Shown here piece after piece: positions 6,248-24,864 of a DNA stretch of 64,000 bases. A model generated the notes under the pieces. It had not been told where the DNA came from and did no database searches. It saw only the letters and a list, made by a program, of their open reading frames with translations. Source of the DNA: an uncultured Bacteroidia bacterium (GTDB lineage: Bacteria > Bacteroidota > Bacteroidia > Bacteroidales > ML635J-15); contig CACYQN010000008.1 in the NCBI GenBank assembly GCA_902776565.1, positions 89,526 to 153,525 on the forward strand. Reading direction: 5' to 3'. The translations under genes were made by a program, and so were the position numbers. Each line of letters begins with the position of its first letter. The first letter of the stretch is position 1.

Positions 6248-8920
6248 ATGTTCGGAAAATCAAAAGGAAAGAAAAAGGGAAAGCCCGAGGACAATGCGCC
6301 AAAGGAAGATTCCAAAGCAAAAAAGCCAGACTCCAAGAAAAAAGGTAAGGATGGCGATGCTGTCGTTGACGACGAATCGAAAGTAAAGCGTTCCGACCAG
6401 ATTAAAATCTGTATCGGATTTTTGCTTTTGGCGTTTGTCATATTGATGATTGTGTCGTTCATTTCCTACTTCTTTACGTGGAAGAGCGACCAGTCGCTGT
6501 CGAACTACGGCTTCTTCGAGGCTATGTTCAACTCCGACATACAGGTCGAGAACAAGGCTGGCAAGATTGGTGCAGTTGTGGCCAACTTCTTTATCCGCGA
6601 CACATTCGGTATCGCTTCGTTCGCAATAGTGGCAATGCTGACCGTAATAAGCCTTAGGCTGTTGAGGATAAGGAAGATTCGCATATTGTCGTTCATAATA
6701 AAGAGCACGGTCATAATGCTGTGGTTCAGCCTTGCATTGGCTTCCATTTTCAAGGACAGCCTGTTTATGCTGGGCGGAAAGCACGGTTATTTTATGTTCA
6801 ATGGAATGTGCAATTTGGTGGGGGCTGTGGGGGCTTACTCCATAATAATTGTACTTGCACTGGTTATAGTTATTTTCTGCTTCGAAAATTCCGTTCTTGG
6901 CATAAAGAAGATTCTGGAGAAAATAGCGGCATTTAGAGTTAAGGACATTAAGACGAAACTCACAAACGAGGAGGATGAAATAGATAAACCCGCAGAGCCG
7001 ACGGATGGCGAAGGTGGCGATGTGGACACCATACTTCCGATTGAACATGCTGGCGAAGAAAATACCGACGAGCCGACCGAACCGGAAGAAACAGAAACTC
7101 CAACGGTTATCGACCTTTACCAGAATCCCGATGGAAAGGAGGAAGATGCTGGCGGAATTGACTTGGAAATAACTCCTGTAAATGTGGAAAATCCCGATGA
7201 GGCATCAGATTCGGAACAGCCTCAAGACGAAGAAAATCAGCCTGTTGACGAAGAACCAGCGCAAGAGGACGAAGCCAATGAGGAGGATATGAGCCTTGAG
7301 ATAAACAAACCGCAGGAGGAGGAGATTGTTGATGAGAACGACCCCGACGAATGGCTGAAGAAAGTAGGTCCTTACGACCCACGTGCAGAACTTGAGGACT
7401 ACAAGTTCCCGTCGCTCGACTTGTTGAAGACTTACGACAACGAGAACGCGCCTATCATCAATCAGGAGGAACAGCGCGAAAACGCCAACCGCATTGTCAC
7501 TACCCTTCGCAACTACGGTGTGGAGATTGACTCCATCAAGGCTACTGTGGGACCAACTGTAACTCTGTATGAGGTTGTGCCGAAGGCTGGTGTACGTATC
7601 AGCAAGATACAGAGCCTCGAGAGCGACATTATGCTTTCACTTTCCGCTGCAGGAATACGTATTATTGCCCCGATGCCCGGCAAGGGAACTGTCGGTATAG
7701 AGGTGCCTAACGAAAAGCCGCAGATGGTATCGATGCACTCGGTAATCGCTTCCAAGCGTTTTCAGGAGGAGAAAAAGATGCGTCTGCCGATTGCTTACGG
7801 CCGAACAATTACCAACGAAATCTTTATGTTCGACCTTGCCAAGACTCCTCACTTGCTTGTGGCTGGTGCTACTGGAACAGGTAAGTCCGTGGCTATCAAT
7901 GCGATTATCACATCGTTGCTGTACAAGAAACATCCTGCCGAACTAAAACTCGTGATGGTTGACCCGAAGATGGTTGAGTTCGCTCCGTACAAGCCACTTA
8001 TCCGTCATTTCCTCGCTGCACAGCCCGATACCGACCCTCAGCAGGTTGTCATTACCGACTGCGACAAGGTCATCAACACACTCAATTCGCTCGTAGTGGA
8101 GATGGAAGAACGCTACAAACTGCTGATGGACGCAGGTGTACGTAACTTGGAGGAATACAACGAAAAATTCATCAACCGCCGTCTCAATCCGCAGAAAACT
8201 GTGCCGAATACCGCTATGCACCATCAGTTTTTGCCATATATCGTCATAATAATTGACGAGTACGGTGATTTCATTATGCAGGCGGGCAAGCAGGTTGAAA
8301 CTCCTATAGCGCGAATCACGCAGAAAGCGCGTGCCGTAGGTATGCACATGATTCTTGCTACCCAGCGTCCGTCGGTAAACATCGTAACTGGTGTCATCAA
8401 GGCCAATATTCCTACTCGTATAGCACTTCGTACTCAGTCGGTTATCGATTCACGAACCGTGCTTGATGCCAAAGGTGCCGAACAGCTTATCGGTCGCGGC
8501 GACTCGCTTTATGCCGGCAATGCAAGCGTAACACGTATCCAGTGCGCATTTGTTGACACCCCCGAAGTTGATGCCATTGTTGACCATATCGAGCACCAGC
8601 AACATTATATAGGTCCGTACGAACTTCCAGAAGTCAAGACCGAAGGCGGTGAAGATGCTGGCGGTGGAGCATCCCTCGACCCAAATAACCGCGACCCTCT
8701 GTTCGAGGAGGCAGCTCGTCTTGTGTGCAGTACACAGCAGGGCTCCACATCGATGTTGCAGCGTAAGTTTGGAATAGGCTACAACAGGGCAGGACGAATT
8801 GTTGACCAGCTCGAGGCAATGGGCATTGTCGGACCGTACGAAGGCAGTAAGGCTCGTCAGGTTATGTACGACGAAACATCTTTGGAACGATATTTGGAGT
8901 CATTGCGTGAAATTAAATAG
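6248..8920 (+). CDS. ftsK: DNA translocase FtsK/SpoIIIE
   Basis: 890 aa with a Lys-rich N-terminus, 4-5 TM helices and an acidic linker. The motor domain has Walker A GATGTGKSV and IIIDEYGD. A C-terminal winged-helix gamma-like segment is present (STSMLQRKFGIGYNRAGRIVDQLE). Confidence 0.95.
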   Translation: MFGKSKGKKKGKPEDNAPKEDSKAKKPDSKKKGKDGDAVVDDESKVKRSDQIKICIGFLLLAFVILMIVSFISYFFTWKSDQSLSNYGFFEAMFNSDIQVENKAGKIGAVVANFFIRDTFGIASFAIVAMLTVISLRLLRIRKIRILSFIIKSTVIMLWFSLALASIFKDSLFMLGGKHGYFMFNGMCNLVGAVGAYSIIIVLALVIVIFCFENSVLGIKKILEKIAAFRVKDIKTKLTNEEDEIDKPAEPTDGEGGDVDTILPIEHAGEENTDEPTEPEETETPTVIDLYQNPDGKEEDAGGIDLEITPVNVENPDEASDSEQPQDEENQPVDEEPAQEDEANEEDMSLEINKPQEEEIVDENDPDEWLKKVGPYDPRAELEDYKFPSLDLLKTYDNENAPIINQEEQRENANRIVTTLRNYGVEIDSIKATVGPTVTLYEVVPKAGVRISKIQSLESDIMLSLSAAGIRIIAPMPGKGTVGIEVPNEKPQMVSMHSVIASKRFQEEKKMRLPIAYGRTITNEIFMFDLAKTPHLLVAGATGTGKSVAINAIITSLLYKKHPAELKLVMVDPKMVEFAPYKPLIRHFLAAQPDTDPQQVVITDCDKVINTLNSLVVEMEERYKLLMDAGVRNLEEYNEKFINRRLNPQKTVPNTAMHHQFLPYIVIIIDEYGDFIMQAGKQVETPIARITQKARAVGMHMILATQRPSVNIVTGVIKANIPTRIALRTQSVIDSRTVLDAKGAEQLIGRGDSLYAGNASVTRIQCAFVDTPEVDAIVDHIEHQQHYIGPYELPEVKTEGGEDAGGGASLDPNNRDPLFEEAARLVCSTQQGSTSMLQRKFGIGYNRAGRIVDQLEAMGIVGPYEGSKARQVMYDETSLERYLESLREIK

Positions 8921-10492: not shown

Positions 10493-11116
10493 TTAACCCA
10501 ACTGGCTTGCAATAACCTTATACCACCAGTCCCAAGAGTATCCTCTTGATGTTGACGGATGATATACTGCTATCACGCGAGATTTCTTTCCGTTTTTCAA
10601 TTGATAATAGCCGTTTCTCACATTGTAGCCGTCAACAACCAATGGCTCACCCTTAATCCAACCTTCGTTGGGCAAATTATCGTACAGGCGACCAACACCC
10701 CAGACGATTATCAAATCAGGTTGCAATTCATTGATTACCTCAAGAAATGCCGTTTGTCCTTCCATGTAGTCTTCGCCTGAGCCTGCTGTTCTTGTTTTTG
10801 TCATTGCAACCTGCAGGAAGTTGAAGAAAGCCAAAGACTGCCATATTTCATTTGAATCTTCAAGTGTAGTTTCCTTGTTGACAAGCGAACGTTCAAACTT
10901 TTTGAATGTATTCGCCCAACCGCCAGTACTGCCATCCAACAATGATTCAATTATTTTAGTGGTGTTTAAATCATTACATTCTGGTGCATATTTTATCCCA
11001 CATTTATCACATCCTCCGCAGTAATGGCTTTCGCCCAACACAAGGATTTTCTTCTTAAATATACCGCCATTCTGATAGTTTTTGCCAATCCAAGGCTTGA
11101 AAAATACATGTTCCAT
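10493..11116 (-). CDS. Hypothetical protein with uracil-DNA-glycosylase-superfamily-like motif order and a C-x2-C-x2-C-x7-C cluster
   Basis: 207 aa with LVLGESHY (aa 25-32), CGGCDKCGIKYAPEC (33-47), FFNF (97-100), IIVWG (136-140) and VYHPSTSRGYS (184-194). It lies 7 nt downstream of the preceding ORF. Confidence 0.7.
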   Translation of the reverse strand: MEHVFFKPWIGKNYQNGGIFKKKILVLGESHYCGGCDKCGIKYAPECNDLNTTKIIESLLDGSTGGWANTFKKFERSLVNKETTLEDSNEIWQSLAFFNFLQVAMTKTRTAGSGEDYMEGQTAFLEVINELQPDLIIVWGVGRLYDNLPNEGWIKGEPLVVDGYNVRNGYYQLKNGKKSRVIAVYHPSTSRGYSWDWWYKVIASQLG

Positions 11117-11123
11117 AGTAAAA

Positions 11124-12485
11124 TTACTTTATATTGTTAATCTTGTCACTCCATTTCCCAATATTTTGGGCAATATCGTCATCTGTTGTGTTTTTTGGCA
11201 ATGTTTCCAATAGTGCCATCTTATATCCGTCAACATCTTCAATTTCAGAAGCACTTGCTTTCTGTTGCAGAACTTTGAGTTTTTCAATGTCGTTGTTGTT
11301 TACAGCAAGCATTATTCTTGTGGTGTTGTCGTTGTTTTTATAGTCGCCATCCTTGTAGGCAAAAATGTAAGGATTGTTGTCTGTGTCATCTTTAATTTCG
11401 CATACAGTACCCCAGTGCCAAGTATAGACATTGTCGCCATATTTTCCCTTTAGCATCTTTTCCCACGAACTGGCTTTTGCCTGACGCTCGCAAGCATCCA
11501 CCAGATATGTGAACCAGTCAGCAAGACATTCTTGCAATTCCTTCGAGGTCGGGAAATACTTTGTCGCGTCGTTTTCTTTAAGGTCATAGAATTTGTCCAA
11601 ATGCCACCACCATAAGCCGTATTGTCTTCGTCCGCAACCTTCTTTCTCCTTTAAAAATTTTGAAAAATAAACTTCTGAACCATATTCTGCTTGAACGTAG
11701 TAATGCCCGTCGTAGAATCCGTATTTTACTTTTGCATCGCCTTTTGTGATTTCCTTGTATTCAAAACTATCGTCTGTTATATTCCAGCCTTTCGCTTCCC
11801 ATTCCTTGCGGGCGTTATCCCAGATTTCAACTTTAGCGTTGTCAGAATTTGCTGCAGACTCTTGCAAACTTTCTATTGAAATAACAGAATCTGTATTAAC
11901 TCTTTCTGTGCTGGATTCAAAAGCAGCAAATGCTTGCGAGAAAATTTTTGCGGCTTCATTCCTGCATTTGTCATTAGGTGTTTTGTCCTCGTAGATTTCT
12001 TCCTGAAAGTTTTTTACAACATTGAACAGTTCCTTTTGCAGTTTTTCTACATCGTATGGTTTATTTGGATACAGACAGACGCATTTTAGGATTTCCTCAA
12101 CGCTTTTGCTTATTGATTCTATGTGCTCGTCCGTTGTGTGCATTGTAATGTACGAAGTTTGGAATTGCAGGCGAATCTTTTCATCGTCGGACAGTTGCCT
12201 GTCCTCAATGGCATTGCATAGGGTTTGCAAGTACTCTTGGTATATACGCAGTTTTTCTTCGTAAATCTTCGACTTTGCAGTGCGCGAAAGTTCACTCTTG
12301 TCTTGGCTTCTCAGCAATATGAATGTTATAAGAATCGTGATTGCCGCTCCGAGAATTGCGGATAGAAACTGATATGGAACATCTGTCACCGTGAATAGTC
12401 GGCAGATATATGCGATGGCACATATTAACAGCACCGAAATTGCTGATATTAATATGCCGGTTGAGTTTTTAATTTTCTCTTTCAT
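11124..12485 (-). CDS. Membrane protein: two N-terminal TM helices, long coiled-coil region, Trp/Tyr-rich C-terminal domain; unknown family
   Basis: 453-aa ORF with TM segments GILISAISVLLICAIAYICRLF and FLSAILGAAITILITFILL. The rest is charged and helical, followed by a beta-rich-looking C-terminus. Confidence 0.75.
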   Translation of the reverse strand: MKEKIKNSTGILISAISVLLICAIAYICRLFTVTDVPYQFLSAILGAAITILITFILLRSQDKSELSRTAKSKIYEEKLRIYQEYLQTLCNAIEDRQLSDDEKIRLQFQTSYITMHTTDEHIESISKSVEEILKCVCLYPNKPYDVEKLQKELFNVVKNFQEEIYEDKTPNDKCRNEAAKIFSQAFAAFESSTERVNTDSVISIESLQESAANSDNAKVEIWDNARKEWEAKGWNITDDSFEYKEITKGDAKVKYGFYDGHYYVQAEYGSEVYFSKFLKEKEGCGRRQYGLWWWHLDKFYDLKENDATKYFPTSKELQECLADWFTYLVDACERQAKASSWEKMLKGKYGDNVYTWHWGTVCEIKDDTDNNPYIFAYKDGDYKNNDNTTRIMLAVNNNDIEKLKVLQQKASASEIEDVDGYKMALLETLPKNTTDDDIAQNIGKWSDKINNIK

Positions 12486-12508
12486 TTTTGTTTGTGTTTA
12501 AAAAGACG

Positions 12509-12736
12509 TTAATTTATTTTATGCCATTGATGGAAAGTCCCCTTTATACAGTATGAAAGAGTCGGTGTTTTTTTGCTTTTAAGAACAAGTCCACAATTTT
12601 TGCATTTATATGTATCAGTCCCAACTTCACCAAAGTCATACCATTGGTGGAAAGTTCCCTTTATACAACCTGATAAATTTGGTGTTCTCTCACTTTGAAT
12701 CAAAGTGTCACATTTTTTACACAGAAAATTTTTCAT
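12509..12736 (-). CDS. 75-aa internally duplicated Cys/His (zinc-ribbon-like) mini-protein
   Basis: There are two about 33-aa halves: CKKC..14..CIKGTFHQW and CKNC..14..CIKGTFHQW. It lies 23 nt upstream of the 453-aa ORF. Confidence 0.6.
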   Translation of the reverse strand: MKNFLCKKCDTLIQSERTPNLSGCIKGTFHQWYDFGEVGTDTYKCKNCGLVLKSKKTPTLSYCIKGTFHQWHKIN

Positions 12737-12805
12737 TGTATTATTCCTTTTTATTTAAATTTTGCCTACTTGTTTCAGGCATCGGCATTCCTTATTTTTT
12801 GATAA

Positions 12806-13621
12806 TTAGTTATCCTTAATGCAGCGAATGGAATAAAAAGCGTCATTTTCAAAATGAGTTTTAGAAACTTCATCTTTAGTAATGTATGGCTTATCGATAT
12901 TCATTTCTATATAATATTGATAAACACTGAAATCGTGCTTGCTCTCTGTTGACGTCCAGAATCTTGTGGCTTCACCATCTTTTTTCCAACTATAATAGTA
13001 ATATCCGCATCCTTGTGCAGAAAATCCGGAAGCATTATTTGTCGTCAATGGATTGTACCCAATATTAATAGAATCTTCAGGTCGTGGGTTAAGATAGTAT
13101 TTCCATTCAACAGAATCTGCCAATGCCTTTGCGATATGTGTGTTGCTAATTCCGCAAATATATTTTTTCTGGCTCATCATATAATGTTCCAATTCTTCCC
13201 ATTCCGATATAGAGGGAACGTGCCATCCTTCGGGACAAATATGTTCTGAAGAAGCGGTATTCTTGTCGTAAAAGATTCTACCATAGTCATCTACCTTATA
13301 ACATAAGGTTGAGTTACGTTTAACAGAGTCGTAGTCATAACGAAATTTATTAGTTGGTTTATAGTAATCATCAGGATTGTACTCCGTGAGATTTGACGTT
13401 GTCTGCAAGTTGCTTTTCATCCACACTTGATTTCCCAACTTTACGGCATCGTAGGTGTTTCCGTCAATGTCTTTTACCACATTCTCGATAACTCTGTCGC
13501 CTTCTTTTGTCATGGCCTTCTCTGGAGAATTTCCATCGCAACTATTAAGTGAAAAGGCAAACATAAGCGCAATTAACATCAAATTGGCACTAAACACTTT
13601 TTTTGTACTAAATCTATTCAT
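12806..13621 (-). CDS. Lipoprotein with Fibrobacter succinogenes major paralogous (FISUMP, TIGR02145-like) domain
   Basis: Lipobox FSLNSC is present from the internal ATG at 13621. FISUMP hallmarks are GNQVWMKSNL and CPEGWHVPSISEWEELE...FWTST...YSIRC. A -7 box lies at 13648-13655, inside the longer ORF-track extension. Confidence 0.85.
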   Translation of the reverse strand: MNRFSTKKVFSANLMLIALMFAFSLNSCDGNSPEKAMTKEGDRVIENVVKDIDGNTYDAVKLGNQVWMKSNLQTTSNLTEYNPDDYYKPTNKFRYDYDSVKRNSTLCYKVDDYGRIFYDKNTASSEHICPEGWHVPSISEWEELEHYMMSQKKYICGISNTHIAKALADSVEWKYYLNPRPEDSINIGYNPLTTNNASGFSAQGCGYYYYSWKKDGEATRFWTSTESKHDFSVYQYYIEMNIDKPYITKDEVSKTHFENDAFYSIRCIKDN

Positions 13622-13647
13622 ATATCCATTATTAAATTTAACATCTG

Positions 13648-13655
13648 CAAATTTA
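13648..13655 (-). promoter_or_regulatory. -7 box (minus strand TAAATTTG) for the FISUMP-led cassette
   Basis: The plus strand reads caaattta, so the minus strand is TAAATTTG, 27 nt upstream of ATG 13621. I found no further TAnnTTTG match between 12737 and 12805. Confidence 0.45.
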
Positions 13656-13943
13656 TTCCTATTATATTCTCTGCGCGTAATTTGCCGCCTACAGTTACTT
13701 TGCGTTCTGCACATAATTACTTTGCATATTTTCGTTTTGTCAGTCATTCTTTGAATTTTTGCTGCAATAATAGGCGGTAGGTACGCCAAAGCGTGTCGTA
13801 GGAGGGAAAAAATGTATAACCCATCATAAAGTTAATGTTGTGCGCCTTTTGTGTAAATTATATGATAGGTTGAATGTTTACTTTGGTCTTGACTTGTGCG
13901 ACCCTTTCCTGAAAAGTTATGTTTTTAGATTGATGTTTTAACT

Positions 13944-14168
13944 TTACTTCTCTTTATACCAGCGACTTAAATCGTCAAAAAAGTCGTGCTGTAATATTTG
14001 CGAGATTTTCATTAGAGTATCAGTGTCAATCCATGGGCGCGAGAATATGAGATAGATATTGTTGCGATGACAGCCCAACTGCTGTGCCAGCCACGAAACC
14101 TTTATGCCTTTCCGTGTCATCTGCTCCCTGATGAGCGAACCGATATGTAGCGTTGAAATGTCCTGCAT
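13944..14168 (-). CDS. Small XRE-type helix-turn-helix DNA-binding protein
   Basis: MQDISTLHIGSLIREQMTRKGIKVSWLAQQLGCHRNNIYLIFSRPWIDTDTLMKISQILQHDFF resembles a common about 75-100-aa Bacteroidales HTH family. The start is taken at the internal ATG. Confidence 0.65.
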   Translation of the reverse strand: MQDISTLHIGSLIREQMTRKGIKVSWLAQQLGCHRNNIYLIFSRPWIDTDTLMKISQILQHDFFDDLSRWYKEK

Positions 14169-14437
14169 CTGCCGTCGTTTGCCGATAACATACAAAAAGC
14201 GTGGAACTAATTTCTTGCCTGACTCTCGGGTTACCACGCCCAACATCTCTTACAAGTAATTCCACGCCGTAGCAATTACGGCGTTCGGCAACTTCCTTGA
14301 GATGTTGTCCTCTAAAAAAGAGGACTTTGTGGTAAATGAGAGCCAAGGGATAGTCACAAACGCTATCTGTCGTTATATGAGTTTTTTTAGTATCTCTGTT
14401 TCGTAGTCTTTATGTTTTTAGTTAAAAATATTGTGTG

Positions 14438-15052
14438 TCATTTATCTCTTACGATATGCTGCGCCCATTCGGGTAAATCGGAGACATATTGCTTCATAAT
14501 TTTACCTTCGTAAAATCGTATGAGCAGTTTCGCCTCCTTGTTTTCTGCTGAATTGTCATAAAGGTAAAGTCTGTCAACTTTATCAGCTATATGTTTGCAG
14601 TTCAATATTGATTTTTGGTAGCGCGAGATTACTTTTGATATAGGCACATCATGTCCGCCTTCCATAACTCTACGAGCAATCCTCGATGCATTGATTATTG
14701 GTGTTTCAGTACAAACGAAAAAAATTCTGACAAAAAATCCAGAATTTAATGCTCTCAAAATGAAATCAACTTTGTCTTGGGCGGATAGAACCGTTTCAAA
14801 GATTAAGCTCTGTTTGTCGTTTAGGCATTGTTCTCGCCATTTTTCGCAGTATTCTACAGACTGCAATATGGCATCCTTTGAGTTCCAGTCGCCAAAGCGT
14901 TCCTGTGCAACAATGTCGGGATTGATGTACACGCAATTCTCAATCCATTCGTGATTAAGGATTTTGCTTGTCACCGAAGTCTTGCCACTTCCATTTGGTC
15001 CTGCGATTACAATCAGTACAGGTTTTTTATTGTTGGAGTTCTCCATTACCAT
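14438..15052 (-). CDS. Zeta-toxin-like P-loop kinase (AAA/zeta toxin family)
   Basis: Walker A VIAGPNGSGKTS is near the N-terminus and the size is about 200 aa. The gene overlaps a small upstream acidic ORF. Confidence 0.7.
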   Translation of the reverse strand: MVMENSNNKKPVLIVIAGPNGSGKTSVTSKILNHEWIENCVYINPDIVAQERFGDWNSKDAILQSVEYCEKWREQCLNDKQSLIFETVLSAQDKVDFILRALNSGFFVRIFFVCTETPIINASRIARRVMEGGHDVPISKVISRYQKSILNCKHIADKVDRLYLYDNSAENKEAKLLIRFYEGKIMKQYVSDLPEWAQHIVRDK

Positions 15053-15218
15053 ATTGTTTTCGATACATTTCAGTCATTTCTGAAAAATATTTTTCAATGG
15101 CGATATTGTATTGGTTCTTGGCTTCCTCAGCGACTTCGTGCATAATGTATTCTAACATTTCATCACTTGGTTCTTCCATATCGGTGAGCCTATACTTATT
15201 AATTTCATCTTTAGACAT
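15027..15218 (-). CDS. 63-aa acidic helical protein, putative cognate antitoxin
   Basis: MSKDEINKYRLTDMEEPSDEMLEYIMHEVAEEAKNQ... Its 3' end overlaps the zeta-like gene start by 26 nt. A -7 box lies 22 nt upstream. Confidence 0.55.
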   Translation of the reverse strand: MSKDEINKYRLTDMEEPSDEMLEYIMHEVAEEAKNQYNIAIEKYFSEMTEMYRKQYGNGELQQ

Positions 15219-15239
15219 AATTATTTGTTTTTTGCATTG

Positions 15240-15247
15240 CAAAGGTA
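15240..15247 (-). promoter_or_regulatory. -7 box (minus strand TACCTTTG) for the TA pair
   Basis: The plus strand reads caaaggta, so the minus strand is TACCTTTG, just upstream of ATG 15218. Confidence 0.4.
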
Positions 15248-15277
15248 CAAAATATTCCGATATATGTTGAATATGTG

Positions 15278-16074: not shown

Positions 16075-16287
16075 TTACTTTTCGTTTCCATCAAGCATAA
16101 TAAACGCCGCCCAGAATCTTGGATTCTCGAAGCCAGCGGTAGTTTTCAAGGTGCGTTGTGCCTTCAGGAAGGCTTCACGCTTGGTCATGCCTTTTATAAG
16201 ATTCGAGTAAAACTCGTCCGCGCTGAAGTCCGAAAACGCCTTCACCTGTGATTTCTCCAAGAGCGGTCTGGCAAGCGGACAGTACAA
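16075..16287 (-). pseudogene. Out-of-frame C-terminal remnant of the CHAT-1 gene
   Basis: The 70-aa ORF ends ...EFYSNLIKGMTKREAFLKAQRTLKTTAGFENPRFWAAFIMLDGNEK, the same as the C-terminus of the 19490 gene. It is in a different frame from the 1028-aa ORF because of a 38-nt deletion at 16216/16217. Confidence 0.8.
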
Positions 16288-19261
16288 CCAAATCGGTCTT
16301 GCGCAAGTCCATGAAACTTATTTCCTTGGCGGTGAGAATACCATCTTCGATGCCTTCGGGCAGAGGTTTGTTCTGCCAAGCGTAGTTTGCACCCGACAGC
16401 AATAATCCCGACTGGATGAGCGACTGGTCGCCCGACATTTTTTCGTCGGTGGGGAGGAAGAATCCGTGGGTTGCAATGTGCAATACTGAAATATCGCTAC
16501 CCGACAATGCTTTGAACGATTCCTCGTTTGCTTGAGAACCTTCGTAGAGGATTGTGGAAATCTTTTTTTTCTTCATCTTGGCGGCAATGTCCTCAACTTC
16601 GTTTTTTGTGCCTTGCAGATATAATAATGGCGACCGGCTTTCGCCCTTGTTGAGGTCGGAGAATGAATTTACTTCGGCACTGCGGGTTGTAAATCTTTCG
16701 CTTTCGAACTTCATAGTGGTCGTGTCGCTGTCGTAGAAAACGCCGCCGTATAGCACCGAGTTTTTCATCGGTTTTTGCTTGTAGTCCATTGCGAGGAATC
16801 GAGTTGACGAAACGCGGTAAATCTCGTACTTGTCCGAAATGGTCTTGCCGTTGCCGACAGGTGCGTACTCTACTGCAATTCGGTGCAACATTCCCGATGG
16901 AGCAAAGAAAATTCGCGGATTTTCAGGAAAATATTTTTCCAAAGGCTTCCAAATCAGGTCGTACATTTCGGGTGTGTCGTATATGTTGCGCAAATGCTTC
17001 TGCATTTCTGACTGCTCGAAAAGCGGTACGCAAACTGGTGCTTCCATGTCTTTTGTAAGAACAAGTGCGACATATTTTGTCGTATCTTCCTCGGTGAATC
17101 CTGAAAATTCTATTGCAACATCGTTAGCCTTCAACGAGTTCTGTACCTCTTTCCAGTCGATTTTTATGAAATGAGTAACATCTCCGAACTCCTTGCAACT
17201 TTCCATCATGTGACGTTCCGTCTTCTGTATTTCGTTTTCGAGCGAATCGCAGTTGTATATGCGTTCTGTAATAGGTTTTTCGAGTTCCTTGTTAAGTTGC
17301 AGGTGCAAGGTCTTCATGTTTTCGTATTCGGCTATCAAAGCAGTGTCGCCGCTTTCCATTATAGTGTTTGCTATGCTTATTTCCGATGCAAGCAGCAAAC
17401 CTTTGGTAATCAGTTCGGTGTCGTATGATGTTTTTGTGCCAAGCGTATCATCGGAAGCATGGTATAAGTATTTAATATTTAGACGCAAGTAACCGCCATT
17501 TTCGTTCCTATATGCTTCTCGCTCATGCGCCGTCATATATGAGAAATTTCTTATAAGGTTATTTTTATATATATCAGTTGCATGTTTTGTCGTCTTTATT
17601 GCATTATGGTAATCGCCCATTCCGTAATATGCAATCGCAGTATTAATAATATTGCCCAGCGATTTTGTATTATCAGAATTTAACTCACCATATGCTTCTT
17701 TTGTTATTTCTGCCGAGCGAATCAGGTATTTCAAAGCACTCTGATAGTCGCCCATGCTATTATATACAACACCAATATTGTTTAGCGATTCGGCGTAATA
17801 ATAATTTTTCCCTTCCCAAATTTTTTCCCTTATTTCCATCGCCTGCAAATGATATTTCAAAGCATTCTGATAGTCGTCCAAGCTGTAATATAAACTCCCT
17901 ATATTGTTTAATGATGCTGCATAGGCAGGATGGTCATCTCCATAGAACTTTTTTCTTAATTCCATTGATTTTAAATAATATTTCATTGCATTCTCGTAGT
18001 CTTCCATTCCTTTATATGCTGCGCCTACATTATTTAGAGATGCCGCACAATCGGGGTGGTCTTCGCCTAATATTTTCCTTTGTATTTCTACCGTCCGCAA
18101 AAAACATTTCAAGGCATTATCCCAGTCTCCCATATAGGAATATGTATTACCGATATTATTTATCAAACTGGCAACTCCTACATGTTCTTCGCCATAAATA
18201 TTTTTGAATATTTCCATTGCCTGATGTTGACATTTCAGCGCATTTTGGAAGTCGCCTATATCCGAATATATTATACCGATATTAGTTAAGGAGTATGCAT
18301 ATTTCGGGTGATTCTCTCCATAAATTTTTTTATATATTTCCATTGCTTGTGTGTAAAATGTCATAGCATTCTGTAAATCACCTAAATCAGAATATATGTT
18401 ACCTGCATTATTTAGCGAAGCGGCAAGGAGTTTTTCATCGGAAAATCTTTTGTTTAATTCGATTGCCAGCAATTGATATTTCAAGGCATTATCCCAGTCG
18501 CCCATTTTTATATATGAGATAACAATGTTGTTAAATGATGCTGCGTATTTAGAGTGCTCGTTTCCATATATTTTTTTTGTTAACTCCATTGATTTGAAGA
18601 AATATTCCAAAGCTATTTTGTATTCTCCTAAACCATTATATGCAAGACCTACACCGCTTAGCACTTCTGCATAATTTGGATGATCTTCTCCGAAAACTTC
18701 CTTAAAAACCTCCATTGCTTTTTGTCCGTATATCAAAGCGTTCTTATAGTCGCCCATATTTTCATAAACGGAAGCAATGCCATATAGCGAGATTGCATAA
18801 TCTGGATGTCCTTCTCCGAGGACTTTTTTTCTTATTTCCAATGCTTGCGAATAGTATCTCAAGGCGTTTTGCTGGTCATCAATATAAGAATATGTGCCAC
18901 CTATGCCATTTAGCGTTTTTGCATATTTAGGGTGTTCTGCTCCCAAAATTACTTTTTGAATTTCTGCCGTCTGAATGAAATACTCAAGGGCGTTCTCGTA
19001 ATTTCCAATGCTAGAATATACCCAAGCAATATTGTACAATGAGGTAGCGTAATGGATATTGTTTCCTTTTTCAACATCTTTGGTCATTTCAGCCGCTTGG
19101 TTGTACAGTTCAAAAGCTTCATTGTATTTTTGGGCATCATAAAAGGTGTCACCAAGGGTATTCAGTGAATCCGCCTTATGGAATATGGCGGTTGTGTCGG
19201 CTTGGGAGAAAGCGGTGGCGCACAGGAGTGCGAGGATGGTTAGGGAAAATATATTCTTCAT
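16175..19261 (-). CDS. Exported TPR-repeat + CHAT (caspase-like) domain protein, C-terminally truncated by frameshift (CHAT-1)
   Basis: Signal peptide MKNIFSLTILALLCATAFSQ. There are about 12 kinesin-light-chain-type TPRs (Y..A.....G.Y..AL.Y). The CHAT His/Cys motifs HIATHGFF and VVLSACQT are present. Confidence 0.85.
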   Translation of the reverse strand: MKNIFSLTILALLCATAFSQADTTAIFHKADSLNTLGDTFYDAQKYNEAFELYNQAAEMTKDVEKGNNIHYATSLYNIAWVYSSIGNYENALEYFIQTAEIQKVILGAEHPKYAKTLNGIGGTYSYIDDQQNALRYYSQALEIRKKVLGEGHPDYAISLYGIASVYENMGDYKNALIYGQKAMEVFKEVFGEDHPNYAEVLSGVGLAYNGLGEYKIALEYFFKSMELTKKIYGNEHSKYAASFNNIVISYIKMGDWDNALKYQLLAIELNKRFSDEKLLAASLNNAGNIYSDLGDLQNAMTFYTQAMEIYKKIYGENHPKYAYSLTNIGIIYSDIGDFQNALKCQHQAMEIFKNIYGEEHVGVASLINNIGNTYSYMGDWDNALKCFLRTVEIQRKILGEDHPDCAASLNNVGAAYKGMEDYENAMKYYLKSMELRKKFYGDDHPAYAASLNNIGSLYYSLDDYQNALKYHLQAMEIREKIWEGKNYYYAESLNNIGVVYNSMGDYQSALKYLIRSAEITKEAYGELNSDNTKSLGNIINTAIAYYGMGDYHNAIKTTKHATDIYKNNLIRNFSYMTAHEREAYRNENGGYLRLNIKYLYHASDDTLGTKTSYDTELITKGLLLASEISIANTIMESGDTALIAEYENMKTLHLQLNKELEKPITERIYNCDSLENEIQKTERHMMESCKEFGDVTHFIKIDWKEVQNSLKANDVAIEFSGFTEEDTTKYVALVLTKDMEAPVCVPLFEQSEMQKHLRNIYDTPEMYDLIWKPLEKYFPENPRIFFAPSGMLHRIAVEYAPVGNGKTISDKYEIYRVSSTRFLAMDYKQKPMKNSVLYGGVFYDSDTTTMKFESERFTTRSAEVNSFSDLNKGESRSPLLYLQGTKNEVEDIAAKMKKKKISTILYEGSQANEESFKALSGSDISVLHIATHGFFLPTDEKMSGDQSLIQSGLLLSGANYAWQNKPLPEGIEDGILTAKEISFMDLRKTDLVVLSACQTALGEITGEGVFGLQRGRVLLESYKRHDQA

Positions 19262-19489: not shown

Positions 19490-22400
19490 TTACCTTTCGT
19501 TTCCGTCCAGCATTATAAACGCCGCCCAGAACCTTGGATTCTCGAAGCCAGCGGTAGTTTTCAAGGTGCGTTGTGCCTTCAGGAAGGCTTCACGCTTGGT
19601 CATGCCTTTTATAAGATTCGAGTAAAACTCGAGGCTCATGATAATGGTATGTACGCCAGCCTTCTTGAATCCGCGCTGCAAACCGAAAACCCCTTCGTCG
19701 GTAATTTCGCCAAGACCAGTCTGGCAGGCCGAAAGCACGACCATGTCGGTGCTGCGCAAGTCCATTCCGCTGATTTCCTTGGCAGTGAGAATGCCGTCCT
19801 CGATGCCTTCGGGGATACTGCGGTTTTGCCAGATATTGTTGGCACCTGCAAGCATAAGTCCCGACAAGTTGAGCGACTGGCTCGAATTCAGCTTTTCGTC
19901 GGTAGGCAGGAAGAAACCATGTGTGGCAATATGCAAGAGCGAAACTTTCTTGCCCGACAAGTCCTTGAACGATTCCTCGTTGGCCTGTTCGCCTTCGCGA
20001 AGGTCGGTATTCCACTTGCCCGACTTCATCATCGATGCAATGGCTTCAACTTCTGACTTCGTTCCCGGCAGGTAGTTGAGCGACGAACGGTCTTCGTCCT
20101 TGTTGATTTCGGCAAACGAGTTGTACGAGACAGCTCGCGTTCCAAAACGTTCGTTCTCACGCTTCATGGCGGCGGTGTCGGAATCGTACTTTATGCCTCC
20201 GTATAGCACAGCATCCTCGAATGGTCGCGGTGAATAGTCGGTTGCAAGGAATCGGGTGGAGGATATGCGGTACATTTCGTACTTGTCGGAAATGCTTGTC
20301 TTTGCATCGACTGGCGCGTATTCGATTGCCACCTGATGCAGAATCCCTGCCGGAGCAAAATATATGCGGGCATTCTTGCCGAAATATTTTTCCATCGGTT
20401 TCCAGATGGCTGTGTAGAGGTCGGTGGAAGTGTATAAGCCCATACGCTTGTCGCGCAAGACGGTTGCACCTCTGCCGTCGTCTTGCTTGTCGGGAAGCGA
20501 GCCTGTACGCATCAGCTTTTGCAGGTCGCTGGCGGTGCATAATGTCACGAGCACTGGCGATTTCATTTCCTTTGTGAGCACAAGTGCGGCATATTGGGTT
20601 TTGGTGGAGTCAACCTCGAACTTTGTAAATTCAATTGCAACGTCGCCGCTTTTCATTGCCGACTGCACATCTTTCCAAGTGAGTTCAACCGAACCTGCAA
20701 TGTTGCCGTATTTTGCAGTTCTTGCAACCAAATCGCGTTCGGCATTGTTTATTTTTTCCTTCAGTTCGCGGGTGTCGATATATCTTTCCTCTACGGGCAT
20801 TTCGTAAGCCTTGTTGAGCGTCTCGTTAAGCGAAACCAGTCTCATGTAGTCGGAGATGAGGGAAGAGTCGCCGCTTTCGTAGATTGTGCGTGTGAATTCA
20901 ATGTCGGAAGTGAGCAGAAGTCCTTTGGTGATGAGTTCGGCATCGTAGGCACCGCCCGAAATCAAGTCGTTGTTGGGCAATTTGCTTCCGCAACGAAGGA
21001 TGCGCTGGCACATCGAGCCGTTGTTTTCCCAGTACATTTCGCGTTCGGCTGCGGTGAGGAACGAAAAATCGGAAACAAGATGCTTGCGGTTAATCGTGAG
21101 TGCCGAAATGTAGCATTCGGCGGCTTTCTGGTAGTCGCCCGAGGCGAAATACACGTCGCCCTTGTTGTTGGTCATGTCGGCGTAGCGGGCATGGTCGGTG
21201 CCATAGACTTCGGCTGCAATTTTCAGTGCATTATCGAAGTACGAAAGTGCTTTCGTATGTTCGCCCTGCGCATTGTAGGCAAGGGCAATGTTGGCGATGG
21301 TATTTGCGTAGTCGCCAGTGTTTTCCATCTTGCTGGCGGAAATTATCGAGCGGCATTTCTCGTACGAAGTCAGTGCCTCATCGTATTTGCCCGTGTCATA
21401 ATATACATTGCCGATATTGTTGTAGCTGGCGGCGCAGTTTATGTCGTTGTCGCCAAAATTCCGCTTGTAAATTGCAAGCGATTCGTTGTAGAAGTCGAGG
21501 GCAACCTTGTCGTTTTTCGTCTTGCGGTTCAGATTGCCGAGGTTGTTGAGCGTATTGGCAACCGACGGCGAAGTTTCGTCGAGGCTGGTTCTTGCACATT
21601 CTTGTGCAATATTGAAACAGATAGACGACTTTTCGTAGTTTCCGAGGTGCAGGTAAGCATTTCCGAGAAGGTTGTAGATGTCAACATATAGTTCAGCATC
21701 AATCAGTCCGCAGAAAACCTTGTCCATTTTTGGCTCGAGGCATCCTATTGCCGAAGCGTAGTCGTCCGTAAGGCAGTAGGTCGATGCAATTGAGTGTATC
21801 AGGAGGTAATAGATGTCGCTGTTGTCGGTTTCGTCGAAAAGCGCGAGCATGCCATTGTAGTATTTGAAAGCCTTGTCGAAGTTGTGCGAGTTGGCATACA
21901 GGTCGGCGGCATTTATAAGATTCGAAAATTCGGGATATGAAAATTGGTAGTACCTGTCGAGAGCCATGTAATATTCGAAAAGTTCGTCGTATGTTTTCGT
22001 TAGGGATGCCATGTCTTGTTTCTCCTTGAATATTGTAATCCGATAGTCGAGGTATGGAAGATATATGCTAACGGATTTTTCGTCTTTTCTATCGCCGAGA
22101 CGAATAAAATTGTCGAGTTCATCAAGATATTTGGCGGCGGAATCGTAGTTGGCGAAAACGATTTCGATGAATGCGGTGTGTAAAAGCGATACAGAATAAA
22201 TCACGCTGTCGTTTTCGCTTGTATATCCATTGGTCGTGAAGTATTTTTTCAAATCGTTGAAAGCTTTTATGCCCGAATTGCGGTCGTTTTCGTCATTACT
22301 GCCGGACATCTCAATGTACGACGAAACGTTGTACAGCGACTGATACAGCGAGTCGAGTTCGCTCATCGGCACCATTCCGTAAATATCTAGGTCGTCAATG

Positions 22401-24841
22401 CCCTCTATGGTGTCGGGACCGTCCCACAATGTCATTTCTTCATCTTCGTCGGGCATGAAGTTTTTCGACATCTTTTCGTATTTCTTGCGGTACTTTTTTG
22501 CATTTTTTGTGTCGCCAGCGAATTCGTATGTCTTGTAAAGATTTTTCAAAGTTTGGCAGTACCTATATGATGTCTTGGTATTCTTGTCTTTTTCCATCTC
22601 CGACAAGGACTTTTGGTAGCAGTTGGCTGCATTCAGAAAATTAGCCATATAGTTATATATTTCAGCCTTCGTCTCATAGATGGAAACTTTGTATTCGCTG
22701 ATTTCGTAGTCTTCGAGAATGCCACCCGACTTGTCAAGAAGTGCCAGATATTCGTCACATATTTCCAACATCAATTTGCTGTCATTCAAATTGGTATATT
22801 GGTTCATCAGTTCGTTTAGTAAACTTTTGCATCTCTTTATGGTGAAGCTATTTACAGGCAAATTGTTGTAAATGTTGTATGCAAGTTTGCAATATTTTAT
22901 TGTTTCGTCACTTTCGTTCAGATTGCTCTTGTTTTCAGCTATTTCGTAAAGAGTGTTGGCATAGTTGCGGGTGTTTGTGAGCGACAACTTTTCAAAGATA
23001 GCCTTTGCCTCGTCCAAGTATTCCAAAGCCTTGTTTGCACCTGTGGTTTCGCCGTAGAAACGTCCAACGTTGTAGAGTGAATAAGCGTAGTAAAGGCTGT
23101 CGGTGGCTGTTGCTTTGCCGGTTGCAATGTATTCGCGGAAAGCGACCATTGGTGTGCGTGCCTTGTTTAGGCGTTGGCTGGGGTTGCTTTCTTGCGACTT
23201 GTACAGGGCGCAGACGACATCGTAGCGTAGCGAGTCGCTGTGTGAGCCTGTCGGGCGGAAAGTGCCGTCGTAAAGTGGTTGCACTTCCTCGTCGTCAACG
23301 GCAATGTCCATATAATCAAAAACCGTCATGTATGAAGTTGGGATTTCCGCTCCGTCGAAATCATTTACCTCATTTTCAATTATATAGTTGTACTCCTTGC
23401 GGTATTTTTCGGCTTCCTTGTGGTTGCCAGCCTTTTCGTAGGCATCGGCCAACTTCAGTATCACATTTGCATTTCCTCCGTTTGTGCTGTCGTCGCTGCT
23501 GTAGGCTTGCTGGTAGTACTCGATGGCCTTGTCGGTGTTGCCTTTTTGCATGTAGCAGTTGCCGATGTTAGTGAGTGCATAGATGTACTGGTCAATGTCG
23601 TTGTCACGGCTGAATTCTGCCATTTTTTCGTAGTACAGGATTGCGTTGTCGTAGTCGTGAAGGGCATCGCTGCTATAATGGTCGCCGAGGGCTGTCAGAA
23701 TGTTAATGATGCTTTGGTAGCGATAGTCGTTGCTTGGCAGTTTGGTGAAGATGTCGAGGGCAGATTCGGCATACTTCATTGCAGTTTGCTGGTCGTTGTA
23801 TAGGTTGTTGTACGTGATTGCAAGTTCGTAAAGAATATCGGCGTGGTTTTCTGTGGTTGCATTTTGAGGTGACGAGCAGGCGGCATCGGCAAGCTTGAAA
23901 TAGTGTAGTGCGCGGGCTTTCATAAGGTTACGACCTTCGTCACCATCTTCGTACAATAGTTGCTGTTTACTAAAGTCGCCCATATTGTAGAGCGCATTGG
24001 CATACAGAAGGCTGTCGGCGGAATTTTTCATACCGCCTTTCTCGAACATCGTTTGAAGCGTATCGAACAGGGCAAATACATTGTCTCCGTAGCCGAAATC
24101 GCCATCAACGACTATGTTGTAGAGCGAATCGCGGCGAGTTGCGGGCTTTTCAATCAAAGTACGGACGTCTGGCCGGTAGGTTTCTGGAATTTCGTATTCC
24201 TTTTCCCATCCGATGAGGTCTTTTTTTTGCAGAAGATTTTCGTATGTTCCAGGTTCGTCGCCTTTCTTGGCATACATTATAGCCTCATCAATAGCTTTTT
24301 CTGCATTGTCGTACTCTTTTAGCGATACATAAGCATCAGAAACCATTTCCATGGCGGATGCAAGCTCGTTATATTGCACCTTGAGGTATTTCTTTGTTAA
24401 ATCGGCGTTCAGCAGGGCATATTGCAGATGTTTTTTGTCGTAACTGTAGTAGGCATTCAGCACATCAAGCATCTCGAAGCATCGCCAGACGTCGTTGTTG
24501 TCGAGTTTGTCAAATTTTGCAAACACGTTCATCGCCGAATCGTAGTACGGGATGTTTTTATAGATGTTTTCGTTTAAATAAATGTAATAGCCAACGTGGA
24601 ACATCATTCGTGCATAGTCGAGGTCGCTGATTTTCTCACGCAAGTGTGGGTTGGCAAGGAACTCGCTGTATGCGGTCTTGTACATTTCGTTGGCTTCGCC
24701 GAGGCATTCGGCATATATGTCGGCATTGCTCGAAAGACATTTCGAGGCAAGCGAGTTGGCCTTTTGCAAGGTATTTTCAATCTGCGAAAACGATTGCAGG
24801 CATATTGTAATGGATGCAAGCAGGAGGATAATCTTTCTCAT
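19490..24841 (-). CDS. Exported giant TPR-repeat + CHAT domain protein (CHAT-2)
   Basis: The ORF is 1787 aa in the track. The start is taken at MRKIILLLASITICLQSFSQ (ATG 24841), downstream of a -7 box. It has many TPRs, and its C-terminal CHAT domain is about 80% identical to CHAT-1 (HIATHGFF, VVLSACQT). Confidence 0.88.
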   Translation of the reverse strand: MRKIILLLASITICLQSFSQIENTLQKANSLASKCLSSNADIYAECLGEANEMYKTAYSEFLANPHLREKISDLDYARMMFHVGYYIYLNENIYKNIPYYDSAMNVFAKFDKLDNNDVWRCFEMLDVLNAYYSYDKKHLQYALLNADLTKKYLKVQYNELASAMEMVSDAYVSLKEYDNAEKAIDEAIMYAKKGDEPGTYENLLQKKDLIGWEKEYEIPETYRPDVRTLIEKPATRRDSLYNIVVDGDFGYGDNVFALFDTLQTMFEKGGMKNSADSLLYANALYNMGDFSKQQLLYEDGDEGRNLMKARALHYFKLADAACSSPQNATTENHADILYELAITYNNLYNDQQTAMKYAESALDIFTKLPSNDYRYQSIINILTALGDHYSSDALHDYDNAILYYEKMAEFSRDNDIDQYIYALTNIGNCYMQKGNTDKAIEYYQQAYSSDDSTNGGNANVILKLADAYEKAGNHKEAEKYRKEYNYIIENEVNDFDGAEIPTSYMTVFDYMDIAVDDEEVQPLYDGTFRPTGSHSDSLRYDVVCALYKSQESNPSQRLNKARTPMVAFREYIATGKATATDSLYYAYSLYNVGRFYGETTGANKALEYLDEAKAIFEKLSLTNTRNYANTLYEIAENKSNLNESDETIKYCKLAYNIYNNLPVNSFTIKRCKSLLNELMNQYTNLNDSKLMLEICDEYLALLDKSGGILEDYEISEYKVSIYETKAEIYNYMANFLNAANCYQKSLSEMEKDKNTKTSYRYCQTLKNLYKTYEFAGDTKNAKKYRKKYEKMSKNFMPDEDEEMTLWDGPDTIEGIDDLDIYGMVPMSELDSLYQSLYNVSSYIEMSGSNDENDRNSGIKAFNDLKKYFTTNGYTSENDSVIYSVSLLHTAFIEIVFANYDSAAKYLDELDNFIRLGDRKDEKSVSIYLPYLDYRITIFKEKQDMASLTKTYDELFEYYMALDRYYQFSYPEFSNLINAADLYANSHNFDKAFKYYNGMLALFDETDNSDIYYLLIHSIASTYCLTDDYASAIGCLEPKMDKVFCGLIDAELYVDIYNLLGNAYLHLGNYEKSSICFNIAQECARTSLDETSPSVANTLNNLGNLNRKTKNDKVALDFYNESLAIYKRNFGDNDINCAASYNNIGNVYYDTGKYDEALTSYEKCRSIISASKMENTGDYANTIANIALAYNAQGEHTKALSYFDNALKIAAEVYGTDHARYADMTNNKGDVYFASGDYQKAAECYISALTINRKHLVSDFSFLTAAEREMYWENNGSMCQRILRCGSKLPNNDLISGGAYDAELITKGLLLTSDIEFTRTIYESGDSSLISDYMRLVSLNETLNKAYEMPVEERYIDTRELKEKINNAERDLVARTAKYGNIAGSVELTWKDVQSAMKSGDVAIEFTKFEVDSTKTQYAALVLTKEMKSPVLVTLCTASDLQKLMRTGSLPDKQDDGRGATVLRDKRMGLYTSTDLYTAIWKPMEKYFGKNARIYFAPAGILHQVAIEYAPVDAKTSISDKYEMYRISSTRFLATDYSPRPFEDAVLYGGIKYDSDTAAMKRENERFGTRAVSYNSFAEINKDEDRSSLNYLPGTKSEVEAIASMMKSGKWNTDLREGEQANEESFKDLSGKKVSLLHIATHGFFLPTDEKLNSSQSLNLSGLMLAGANNIWQNRSIPEGIEDGILTAKEISGMDLRSTDMVVLSACQTGLGEITDEGVFGLQRGFKKAGVHTIIMSLEFYSNLIKGMTKREAFLKAQRTLKTTAGFENPRFWAAFIMLDGNER

Positions 24842-24864
24842 ATAAAAACACAAAAATTTTTAGG

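Follow-up and report, generated by a model that had tools for sequence, protein, structure and literature searches.

DNA glycosylases were recognised as anti-phage effectors in 2024-2026 (Brig1-3 and the Dag families), and few such families are known. To our knowledge, no defence glycosylase family has been characterised from the Bacteroidales, which are dominant in gut and rumen communities. Here we describe a locus in a 64,000-nucleotide stretch of contig CACYQN010000008.1 from an uncultured Bacteroidia bacterium (hereafter, the window), where the last of four consecutive minus-strand genes encodes a 207-residue protein, UDGL207, with the predicted fold of a uracil-DNA glycosylase (UDG). Among described systems, the locus is best filed with the UDG-superfamily glycosylases of conflict systems. 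Three such enzymes, Brig1 (PMC11078745), Brig2 (10.1101/2025.10.29.685425) and Brig3 (PMC13160076), defend by excising modified phage bases, and the last of these acts with an operon partner, BapA.

The Brig enzymes and UDGL207 are alike in several respects. Each combines a UDG-superfamily fold with low sequence identity to the repair enzymes, and each is encoded by a short, mostly stand-alone gene in an A/T-rich, defence-island-like or mobile setting. Brig3 has an operon partner, as UDGL207 may have here. The reported Foldseek match between Brig1 and Brig2 (E 2.5e-5, root-mean-square deviation 7.3) is of the same order as the matches between UDGL207 and solved UDGs. For Brig2 and Brig3 these likenesses are drawn from the published descriptions, while our sequence comparison covers Brig1 alone; the PDB Foldseek matches of UDGL207 included no Brig structures. 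UDGL207 differs from the Brig enzymes in having motifs of its own (G-[ED]-S-H-Y, F-Y-N-Y-x-Q and an N-terminal F-x-P-W-x-G) and an optional loop with four cysteines (Cys4), and membrane-anchored and zinc-ribbon partners such as those encoded beside it have not been described for the Brig enzymes.

In transcription order, the four genes encode a FISUMP lipoprotein, a 75-aa zinc-ribbon protein (ZR75; 12509-12736, minus strand), a 453-aa membrane protein (TM453; 11124-12485, minus strand) and UDGL207 (10493-11116, minus strand). A preliminary description of this DNA had presented them as a four-gene cassette, possibly a defence module. The co-orientation of the four genes and the gaps of 69, 23 and 7 nt that it gave are borne out by the coordinates of the open reading frames (ORFs), and its portraits of the products, namely a lipoprotein, a protein with a duplicated C-x2-C...C...H motif, a protein with two transmembrane (TM) helices and a UDG-like protein, all hold in our library, repeat and model analyses. 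It had been unable to name a family for the last three proteins; likewise, UDGL207, TM453 and ZR75 gave no significant match to any Pfam, NCBIfam, PHROG or PADLOC family. The UDG-like, TM453 and ZR repeat families all appear to be undescribed.

An AlphaFold2 (AF2) model of UDGL207, built on 42 relatives, reached a pLDDT of 87.4 and a pTM of 0.88. When this model was searched against the PDB with Foldseek, ranks 1 to 44 were all occupied by members of the UDG superfamily (UdgX, human TDG, E. coli MUG and family-4 UDG), in agreement with the earlier guess at a UDG-like protein; the best match had an E of 4e-5 and a probability of 1.00, and the TM-scores were 0.44-0.56. The modelled fold is alpha/beta with a central four-stranded parallel sheet. 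Five motifs stand out in the sequence: F-x-P-W-x-G-x2-Y (6-14), G28-E-S-H-Y32 (motif A), F-F-N99-F-L-Q102, W139-G140 and H186-P-S. Motif A follows strand 1 (24-28), N99 ends strand 2 (95-99), W139-G140 comes after strand 3, and H186-P-S lies at the end of strand 4 (178-185). In the family at large, position 29 is E or D and the motif around N99 reads F-Y-N99-Y-x-Q102. Across 120 family members (28-52% identity), conservation was 97% for G28, 83% for an acidic residue at 29, 87% for S30, 82% each for H31 and Y32, 97% for N99, 94% for Q102, 95% for H186 and 97% for P187. These conserved positions appear to sit where UDGs hold their catalytic elements, with roles assigned by analogy rather than by superposition. 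Membership of UDGL207 in the UDG superfamily is thus well supported by the modelled fold, and the protein is likely to be an active glycosylase.

The best structural matches of UDGL207 are repair UDGs (family 4/UDGa, UdgX and MUG/TDG of family 2), with which it shares the order of an acidic residue after strand 1, an Asn after strand 2 and a His-Pro-Ser after strand 4. Its motif A reads G-E-S-H-Y, whereas family-4 UDG and UdgX have G-E-[AG]-P-G. Family-4 UDGs hold a 4Fe-4S cluster with four dispersed cysteines. In UDGL207, by contrast, four cysteines (C33, C36, C39 and C47) fall within one loop directly after motif A (33-47), modelled at low confidence, and this loop is missing from some relatives (subfamilies P0111, P0113 and P0116, and the E. 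coli homologues). We therefore rejected an assignment of UDGL207 to family 4 or UdgX, as motif A differs and the cysteines are clustered rather than dispersed. A further difference is that the genomic behaviour of UDGL207 is that of an accessory gene, while repair UDGs are core.

Judged by sequence, UDGL207 founds a large unnamed family. A word-index search returned 316 homologues, all unnamed, and a profile search of 1.84 billion representatives returned 2,887 clusters at E<=1e-3 and 1,469 at E<=1e-10, counted at 50% identity. The family is found in Bacteroidota and on enterobacterial and alphaproteobacterial plasmids. Neither UDGL207 nor the family profile gave a significant match to PDB sequences, and three relatives matched the Pfam UDG family (PF03167) below its threshold: P0152 at E 0.0028 and two E. 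coli plasmid homologues at 0.0048 and 0.0093 (16.5-18.2 bits, against a cut-off of 24.3). Fusions to AAA_15/AAA_21 ATPases (NsnB, AriA and GajA-like), DnaJ-type zinc fingers, VWA or a PDC-S26 domain occur in some relatives.

The DnaJ-type protein, with CXXCXGXG zinc fingers, is found either joined to the C-terminus of UDGL-family proteins or encoded by a gene of its own (L051 6645-7826; P0155, P0156 and P0166). In the latter arrangement the zinc-finger and UDGL genes are neighbours that overlap by 4 nt, with the zinc-finger gene lying downstream, and the fused or adjacent state recurs across three species. These DnaJ-type fingers are a second, independent link of the UDGL family to zinc-finger modules. 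Two UDGL paralogues may also be present in one genome, as in a Barnesiella metagenome-assembled genome (MAG; L048 and L049) and in a horse-faeces MAG (L079 and L081), and in loci of the Segatella copri type a divergent paralogue (L089 4093-4803; hhalign E 1.5e-12) shares the array with the main copy and lies about 5 kb upstream of it.

The protein encoded directly ahead of UDGL207, TM453, has two N-terminal TM helices, followed by a helical region and an alpha/beta C-terminal domain (AF2 pLDDT 78). A juxtamembrane helical domain is conserved (K73, EEKLRIYQ at 76-83 and H116), and the C-terminal alpha/beta domain is duplicated, with the motif GGRR-x-YG-x-WW. None of its 21 homologues is named. 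Fold searches against the PDB and BFVD gave only non-significant matches (ARPC2, LAGLIDADG and type III chaperone-like; E >= 0.01), its profile found nothing significant among PDB sequences, and we found no match to SLATT-type or other described two-TM effectors, to NCBIfam or to PHROGs; Pfam matches were sub-threshold (DUF2207_C at 0.0049 and DUF6320 at 0.0072).

The genes that follow relatives of TM453 were surveyed in 14 subfamilies. At gaps of -4 to 64 nt, these genes encode a UDGL protein, a divergent 293-aa relative of UDGL, a DEDDh exonuclease or GmrSD-type nucleases. The exonuclease follows two TM453 subfamilies (26 loci, gaps of 9-27 nt) and matches the PADLOC family PDC-S48 at 1.8e-28. 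Further subfamilies precede DUF262/GmrSD proteins or a WYL regulator, often with a 73-aa DUF6140 gene ahead. The 293-aa protein, which contains Y-H-P-S-A, is encoded 12 nt behind two TM453 homologues with 32% identity to TM453 (P0124 and P0125). It has diverged from UDGL below detectable pairwise identity; it nevertheless recruits the whole UDGL family in round 2 of jackhmmer, and its best PDB sequence match is a family-4 UDG (4zbx). TM453 is a membrane-anchored protein with a predicted cytoplasmic orientation, and its family is a recurrent upstream partner of interchangeable DNA-acting enzymes.

ZR75 consists of two repeats of C-x2-C-x14-C-x5-H-x-W, encoded by an internal 84-nt direct repeat with a spacing of 117 nt; the protein probably binds zinc. 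It gave nothing significant against PDB sequences. The ZR75 protein is 100% identical across loci while its DNA is 95.6-98.7% identical, with all changes synonymous, and the neighbouring genes in the same loci drop to 80-94% nucleotide identity. By this measure ZR75 is under unusually strong purifying selection for a 75-aa protein. It fills the small-gene slot that is held by DUF6140 in related arrays, and elsewhere the gene ahead of UDGL (gaps of -14 to 12 nt) often encodes DUF6140 or another small zinc ribbon. ZnR71 was considered and rejected as a ZR75 homologue, because jackhmmer searches from either family missed the other and the likeness is positional only.

The ZR repeat also occurs in other settings. 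Two-repeat ZR proteins of 83 aa adjoin TM453 homologues in human gut metagenomes, and the repeat (C-x2-C...S-G-C...H-x-W) is C-terminal in 220-aa proteins that start with a lipoprotein signal, so the ZR domain may work outside the cytoplasm too. Loci of the repeat outside the window include L080 3388-4050, L081 3620-4282, L114-L121 (about 7421-7672, minus strand), L086 and L088. DUF6140 (about 73 aa), for its part, is encoded by a small gene of its own immediately ahead of UDGL or TM453 homologues, and it also forms the N-terminal domain in a GmrSD/HEC-06-like nuclease of 649 aa (examples are L109 2454-8174, L005 7767-9163 and L103 121-348); it looks like a detachable accessory domain of Bacteroidales DNA-targeting enzymes. 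Full-text literature searches for DUF6140 and PDC-S48 found no paper.

We then asked which parts of the cassette are inherited together. The ZR75-TM453-UDGL triplet recurs in at least 12 contigs from close relatives. TM453 and UDGL are adjacent in 10 related loci, all with the 7-nt gap. Ahead of the triplet, these relatives encode either the FISUMP lipoprotein or an unrelated 787-aa protein. The same site in L026 and L028, the closest species-level relatives, reads LysE, HTH_26, a 569-aa secreted protein, a 101-aa gene, UDGL and folP; the UDGL gene of L026 (RUG13567, a rumen Bacteroidia MAG) is 98% identical to that of the window. A 715-aa secreted protein is encoded directly ahead of UDGL in L029, TM453 and UDGL stand alone at a different chromosomal site in L027, and a 91-aa gene is inserted between the two in L019 and L024. 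Nucleotide identity to the window is mosaic, at 96-99% for ZR75, 86-98% for TM453 and 80-96% for UDGL. Since the first gene is replaced by unrelated proteins at the same locus, there is no conserved four-gene cassette of the kind first described. What was taken for one reduces to a three-family module of variable composition.

Co-conservation of the genes, which the preliminary description had named as a check, holds in part. Beyond the triplet in close relatives, the families are linked outside the genome of the window: the P0124 and P0125 loci pair TM453 with a UDG-like protein, and all three families recur in permuted order in L177, where a truncated TM453 homologue, a three-repeat ZR protein (recovered by jackhmmer as a ZR family member) and a UDGL gene follow one another. 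Across a wider sample the linkage is not obligatory. We compiled 80 UDGL loci from GTDB species-representative genomes, 79 of which carry a recognisable relative, and TM453 was the partner at 1 of the 79. A common layout recurs, in which a small protein comes first, a TM453-type protein may or may not follow, and a DNA-acting enzyme comes next.

The genomic neighbourhoods of these families hold genes of defence type. In Bacteroidales, GmrSD/HEC-06 islands share arrays with co-oriented TM453 and UDGL homologues, and these arrays hold DUF6140, DUF262/GmrSD, the PDC-S48-like DEDDh exonuclease, Fic/RhuM, a DrmC-like PLD nuclease and WYL/WCX (BrxR-like) regulators. The GmrSD proteins encoded after TM453 homologues match HEC-06, and the small PLD protein matches DrmC. 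Among the 80 UDGL loci, WYL/WCX regulators were found at 27, DUF6140 at 23 and Fic/RhuM at 9, counts that stand without a matched background control. Defence against phages that carry modified DNA has been validated for a Bacteroides homologue of HEC-06 (10.1101/2025.02.28.640651). PDC-S48 is itself a candidate defence system. The conjecture that the cassette is of defence type thus finds support in the defence-island neighbours of other genomes, and none in the PADLOC models of known systems; the role is inferred by association. The window locus itself is without GmrSD, WYL, DUF6140 or exonuclease.

Outside the Bacteroidota, the UDGL family is found on 100 plasmid records. An IncX1-type homologue is present in 65 of 5,426 complete E. 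coli genomes, and 65 of its 67 places are on plasmids, where the gene is co-oriented with those for a DNA methyltransferase and a DEAD-box helicase beside MobA/MobX. One 3.7-kb ColE1-type plasmid that we inspected has four annotated genes, namely the UDGL homologue, Rop, a mobilisation/exclusion protein (MbeD) and a small hypothetical protein, and homologues are also carried by ColE1-size plasmids of 2.1-2.5 kb. The enterobacterial plasmid homologues are 172-180 aa long and annotated as hypothetical (on E. coli plasmids, L192 7001-7519, L193 2398-2928 and L198 8977-9519). No match to UDGL was found by tblastn in 50,697 phage records. Among 2.9 million viral contigs, 3 had a relative, in each case no more than about 3.5 kb from the end of the contig. 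We rejected a phage origin on this near-absence.

We tentatively favour the reading that the locus encodes a Brig-like DNA-glycosylase defence with a membrane partner, which on the present associations we hold to be possible and somewhat short of probable. Under this reading, a rumen Bacteroidales chromosome would have a variable cargo slot between the helix-turn-helix (HTH) gene and folP, filled here by a three-gene operon, ZR75-TM453-UDGL207, behind an unrelated and swappable lipoprotein gene. UDGL207, as a DNA N-glycosylase, would strip a non-canonical base from the DNA of invading phages, with a modified pyrimidine the most likely target, and the abasic sites left behind would block replication, as they do with Brig1, Brig2 and Brig3. 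TM453 would be the common partner that localises the enzyme at the membrane, senses for it there or restrains it. ZR75 would be a zinc-ribbon adaptor specific to this clade and would take the place that DUF6140 has in sister arrays; this is the weakest step.

A wider proposal, which we consider rather doubtful, is that a small ZR or DUF6140 protein, a TM453-family protein and a DNA enzyme together make up a modular type of defence, so far undescribed, in Bacteroidales of the gut and rumen. Its interchangeable effectors (new UDG-superfamily glycosylases, the DEDDh exonuclease or GmrSD-type nucleases) would attack foreign DNA, its membrane partner might sense DNA where it enters the cell or might tether the enzyme away from the chromosome, and UDGL207 would be the founder of a cross-phylum defence-glycosylase family of about 2,900 clusters.

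Several results weigh against a Brig-like defence role. UDGL showed no detectable relationship to Brig1 (hhalign probability 0.8%, BLASTP E 0.51, with a Brig1 sequence taken from a machine-read PDF in which small errors are possible), UDGL207 did not match PF03167 at E<=1, and its TM-scores to solved UDGs are modest. No cassette protein had a significant match in PADLOC-DB v2.0.0 (2023), which predates Brig1-3; the best PADLOC match of TM453, to PDC-S48, was non-significant (E 0.049) and aligned the conserved helix region with profile positions 207-254, the N-terminal part of this profile being the type of exonuclease encoded after TM453 homologues. L026 and L028 keep UDGL beside folP without ZR75 or TM453, and co-function is therefore not obligatory. 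With TM453 beside UDGL at just one of the species-level loci, UDGL is mostly a stand-alone gene, and the triplet is one of its minority arrangements. No classified neighbour was seen for about 5 of the 14 TM453 subfamilies, and one of these lies in a housekeeping neighbourhood. Lastly, the position of the E. coli plasmid homologue, near a relaxase and by a methyltransferase-helicase pair, would suit an anti-defence role equally.

These points raise the question of whether the genes belong together at all. A recombination-prone slot could have gathered unrelated single genes head to tail, in which case UDGL207 would act alone, TM453 and ZR75 would be unconnected cargo with functions of their own, and the tight spacing would reflect packing. 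Each position in the array is indeed swappable: the first gene exists in four unrelated versions, a 101-aa gene takes the place of ZR75 and TM453 in two loci, a 91-aa gene has entered two others, and adjacent genes differ sharply in their level of identity. UDGL is moreover mostly found without TM453, and TM453 with several different downstream neighbours or none. Chance assembly does not readily account for a TM453/UDGL pairing that exists in two diverged versions (32% identity between the TM proteins, pairwise undetectable similarity between the UDG-like ones) with gaps of 7 and 12 nt, for the reunion of all three families in permuted order in L177, or for the very strong purifying selection on ZR75 within the array. 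We regard independent genes as unlikely.

UDGL207 could alternatively be a base-excision-repair glycosylase that acts on damaged or deaminated bases of the cell's own DNA, perhaps within a WYL-regulated DNA-damage response, with incidental neighbours. Its UDG-superfamily fold and motifs would be expected of such an enzyme, and UDGL resides stably beside folP in three related species. WYL regulators of the same architecture (PafBC and DriD) control DNA-damage responses in other phyla, and a homologue on an Aureimonas plasmid lies beside an HTH regulator and an SOS-response-associated peptidase, which acts on abasic sites. Against this, its distribution is patchy, with paralogues within one genome, its G+C is low, and it is carried on small and conjugative plasmids. 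Some of its relatives are joined to ATPases of the OLD/ABC type, which are typical of conflict systems, and it is accompanied by GmrSD, Fic and PLD genes and not by genes for repair. A repair function is improbable by this evidence. The plasmid homologues suggest a further possibility, namely that the family serves mobile elements in anti-defence or establishment, for instance by removing bases that host defences deposit or recognise; the chromosomal Bacteroidales copies would then be remnants of such elements. The E. coli copies are almost all on plasmids, and their array with methyltransferase and helicase genes by MobA/MobX resembles a leading region; such regions are reported to be rich in anti-defence genes (PMC11541004). 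Yet neither the window locus nor the Bacteroidales loci that we examined had conjugation, integrase or tRNA features nearby, phages almost entirely lack the family, and its Bacteroidales neighbours are of defence type and not of anti-defence type, which leaves this account less probable still.

Whichever function applies, the UDGL207 family is large and is without a curated Pfam, NCBIfam, PADLOC or PHROG model. If it is a family of defence glycosylases, its substrate would point to DNA modifications of gut phages, and a new base-specific enzyme would be at hand. If it proves to consist of repair or anti-defence enzymes, it would still be a sizeable unnamed branch of a well-studied superfamily. 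A membrane partner with swappable DNA enzymes, if true, would be an organising principle for Bacteroidales accessory islands, in which most genes are unannotated.

The first gene of the four (12806-13621, minus strand) encodes the FISUMP lipoprotein of 271 aa, which matches PF09603 (4e-26; 92.9 bits against a cut-off of 33.9) and TIGR02145 (1.7e-22; 80.9 bits against 41.65). The mechanical ORF extends over 12806-13789; we place the start at the ATG at 13621, which opens a lipoprotein signal peptide, MNRFSTKKVFSANLMLIALMFAFSLNSC, and gene calls of 270-271 aa in relatives agree with this choice. The N-terminus, MNRF...AFSLNSC, is a signal peptide with a lipobox cysteine. In relatives this slot is filled by the unrelated 787-, 569- or 715-aa proteins, the latter two of which also bear N-terminal signal peptides. 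The FISUMP gene is a neighbour and not a conserved member of the module, and it is probably co-transcribed with the downstream genes.

A conserved region (13622-13813, minus strand) lies upstream of this gene and is kept ahead of different first genes, at 85-100% nucleotide identity in L001, L018-L021, L023, L026 and L028; just a 47-nt stretch aligns in L029 (83%). About 190 nt of upstream sequence and the start MNRF stay conserved while the first gene changes, which suggests that a gene for a surface or secreted protein is replaced cassette-wise behind a fixed promoter. Within this region lies the TAnnTTTG box, TAAATTTG (13648-13655, minus strand), that had been cited in favour of a single transcript. 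The box is indeed present, and the motif is absent from the three internal gaps of the cassette; across the window, 57 copies were found against 54 expected, and the box is therefore weak evidence for one transcript. There were no convincing inverted repeats flanking the upstream region.

Directly downstream of the variable first gene is a non-coding 30-nt junction element, GGAATGCCGATGCCTGAAACAAGTAGGCAA (12762-12791, minus strand). It is present once per locus in every variant, whether the upstream gene encodes the FISUMP, 787-, 569- or 715-aa protein and whether ZR75, the 101-aa gene or UDGL follows. The form GGAATGCCGATGCCTGAAMCAAGTAGGCAA was also found at L001 5744-5769, L018 7950-7975, L028 9587-9612 and L029 9957-9982. 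Hairpin prediction for the element was no better than for shuffled sequences, and it had no match in Rfam. A role as a recombination junction or as an internal regulatory site is possible. An invertible promoter or a dispersed repeat was rejected, as there are no convincing inverted repeats and the junction element is single-copy.

The locus is also distinct in composition and setting. As the preliminary description had surmised from spot counts, the cassette is atypical in composition: its G+C is 37.9%, compared with 44.7% for the window (standard deviation 2.6 points among windows of equal size), and the eight lowest 3.1-kb windows in the 64 kb (100-nt steps) all start at 10.7-12.4 kb. G+C at third codon positions is 0.25-0.42 in the four cassette genes and 0.53-0.57 in folP, ftsK and LolA. 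The flanks named earlier are confirmed, with folP on one side (Pterin_bind, 5e-65) and an HTH_26 gene and a zeta-toxin gene on the other, where LysE lies as well. The remaining parts of the window that we examined look chromosomal. An integrative element was considered and rejected, with no tRNA nearby and no integrase among the ORFs checked for Pfam content.

The HTH_26 gene (13944-14246, minus strand) is co-oriented with the cassette and encodes a 100-aa Cro/C1-type protein (PF13443, 7.3e-7). Homologues lie upstream in L001, L002, L018-L020, L024, L026, L028 and L029. As all variants of the locus keep this protein upstream, we consider it a candidate regulator. In the window, the zeta-toxin gene (14438-15052, minus strand) overlaps a possible upstream ORF of 77 aa (15027-15260, minus strand) that has no family match, and the pair is positioned between LysE and the HTH_26 gene. 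After the HTH_26 gene, relatives carry a HipA/HTH_31 pair, a zeta toxin-antitoxin pair or no insert, and the toxin-antitoxin module is thus a further swappable insert in the same slot. Just past the island are two adjoining genes for large TPR-CHAT proteins of 1,028 aa (16175-19261, minus strand) and 1,787 aa (19490-24853, minus strand), both with hydrophobic, signal-like N-termini, the first of which is low in G+C (40.2%).

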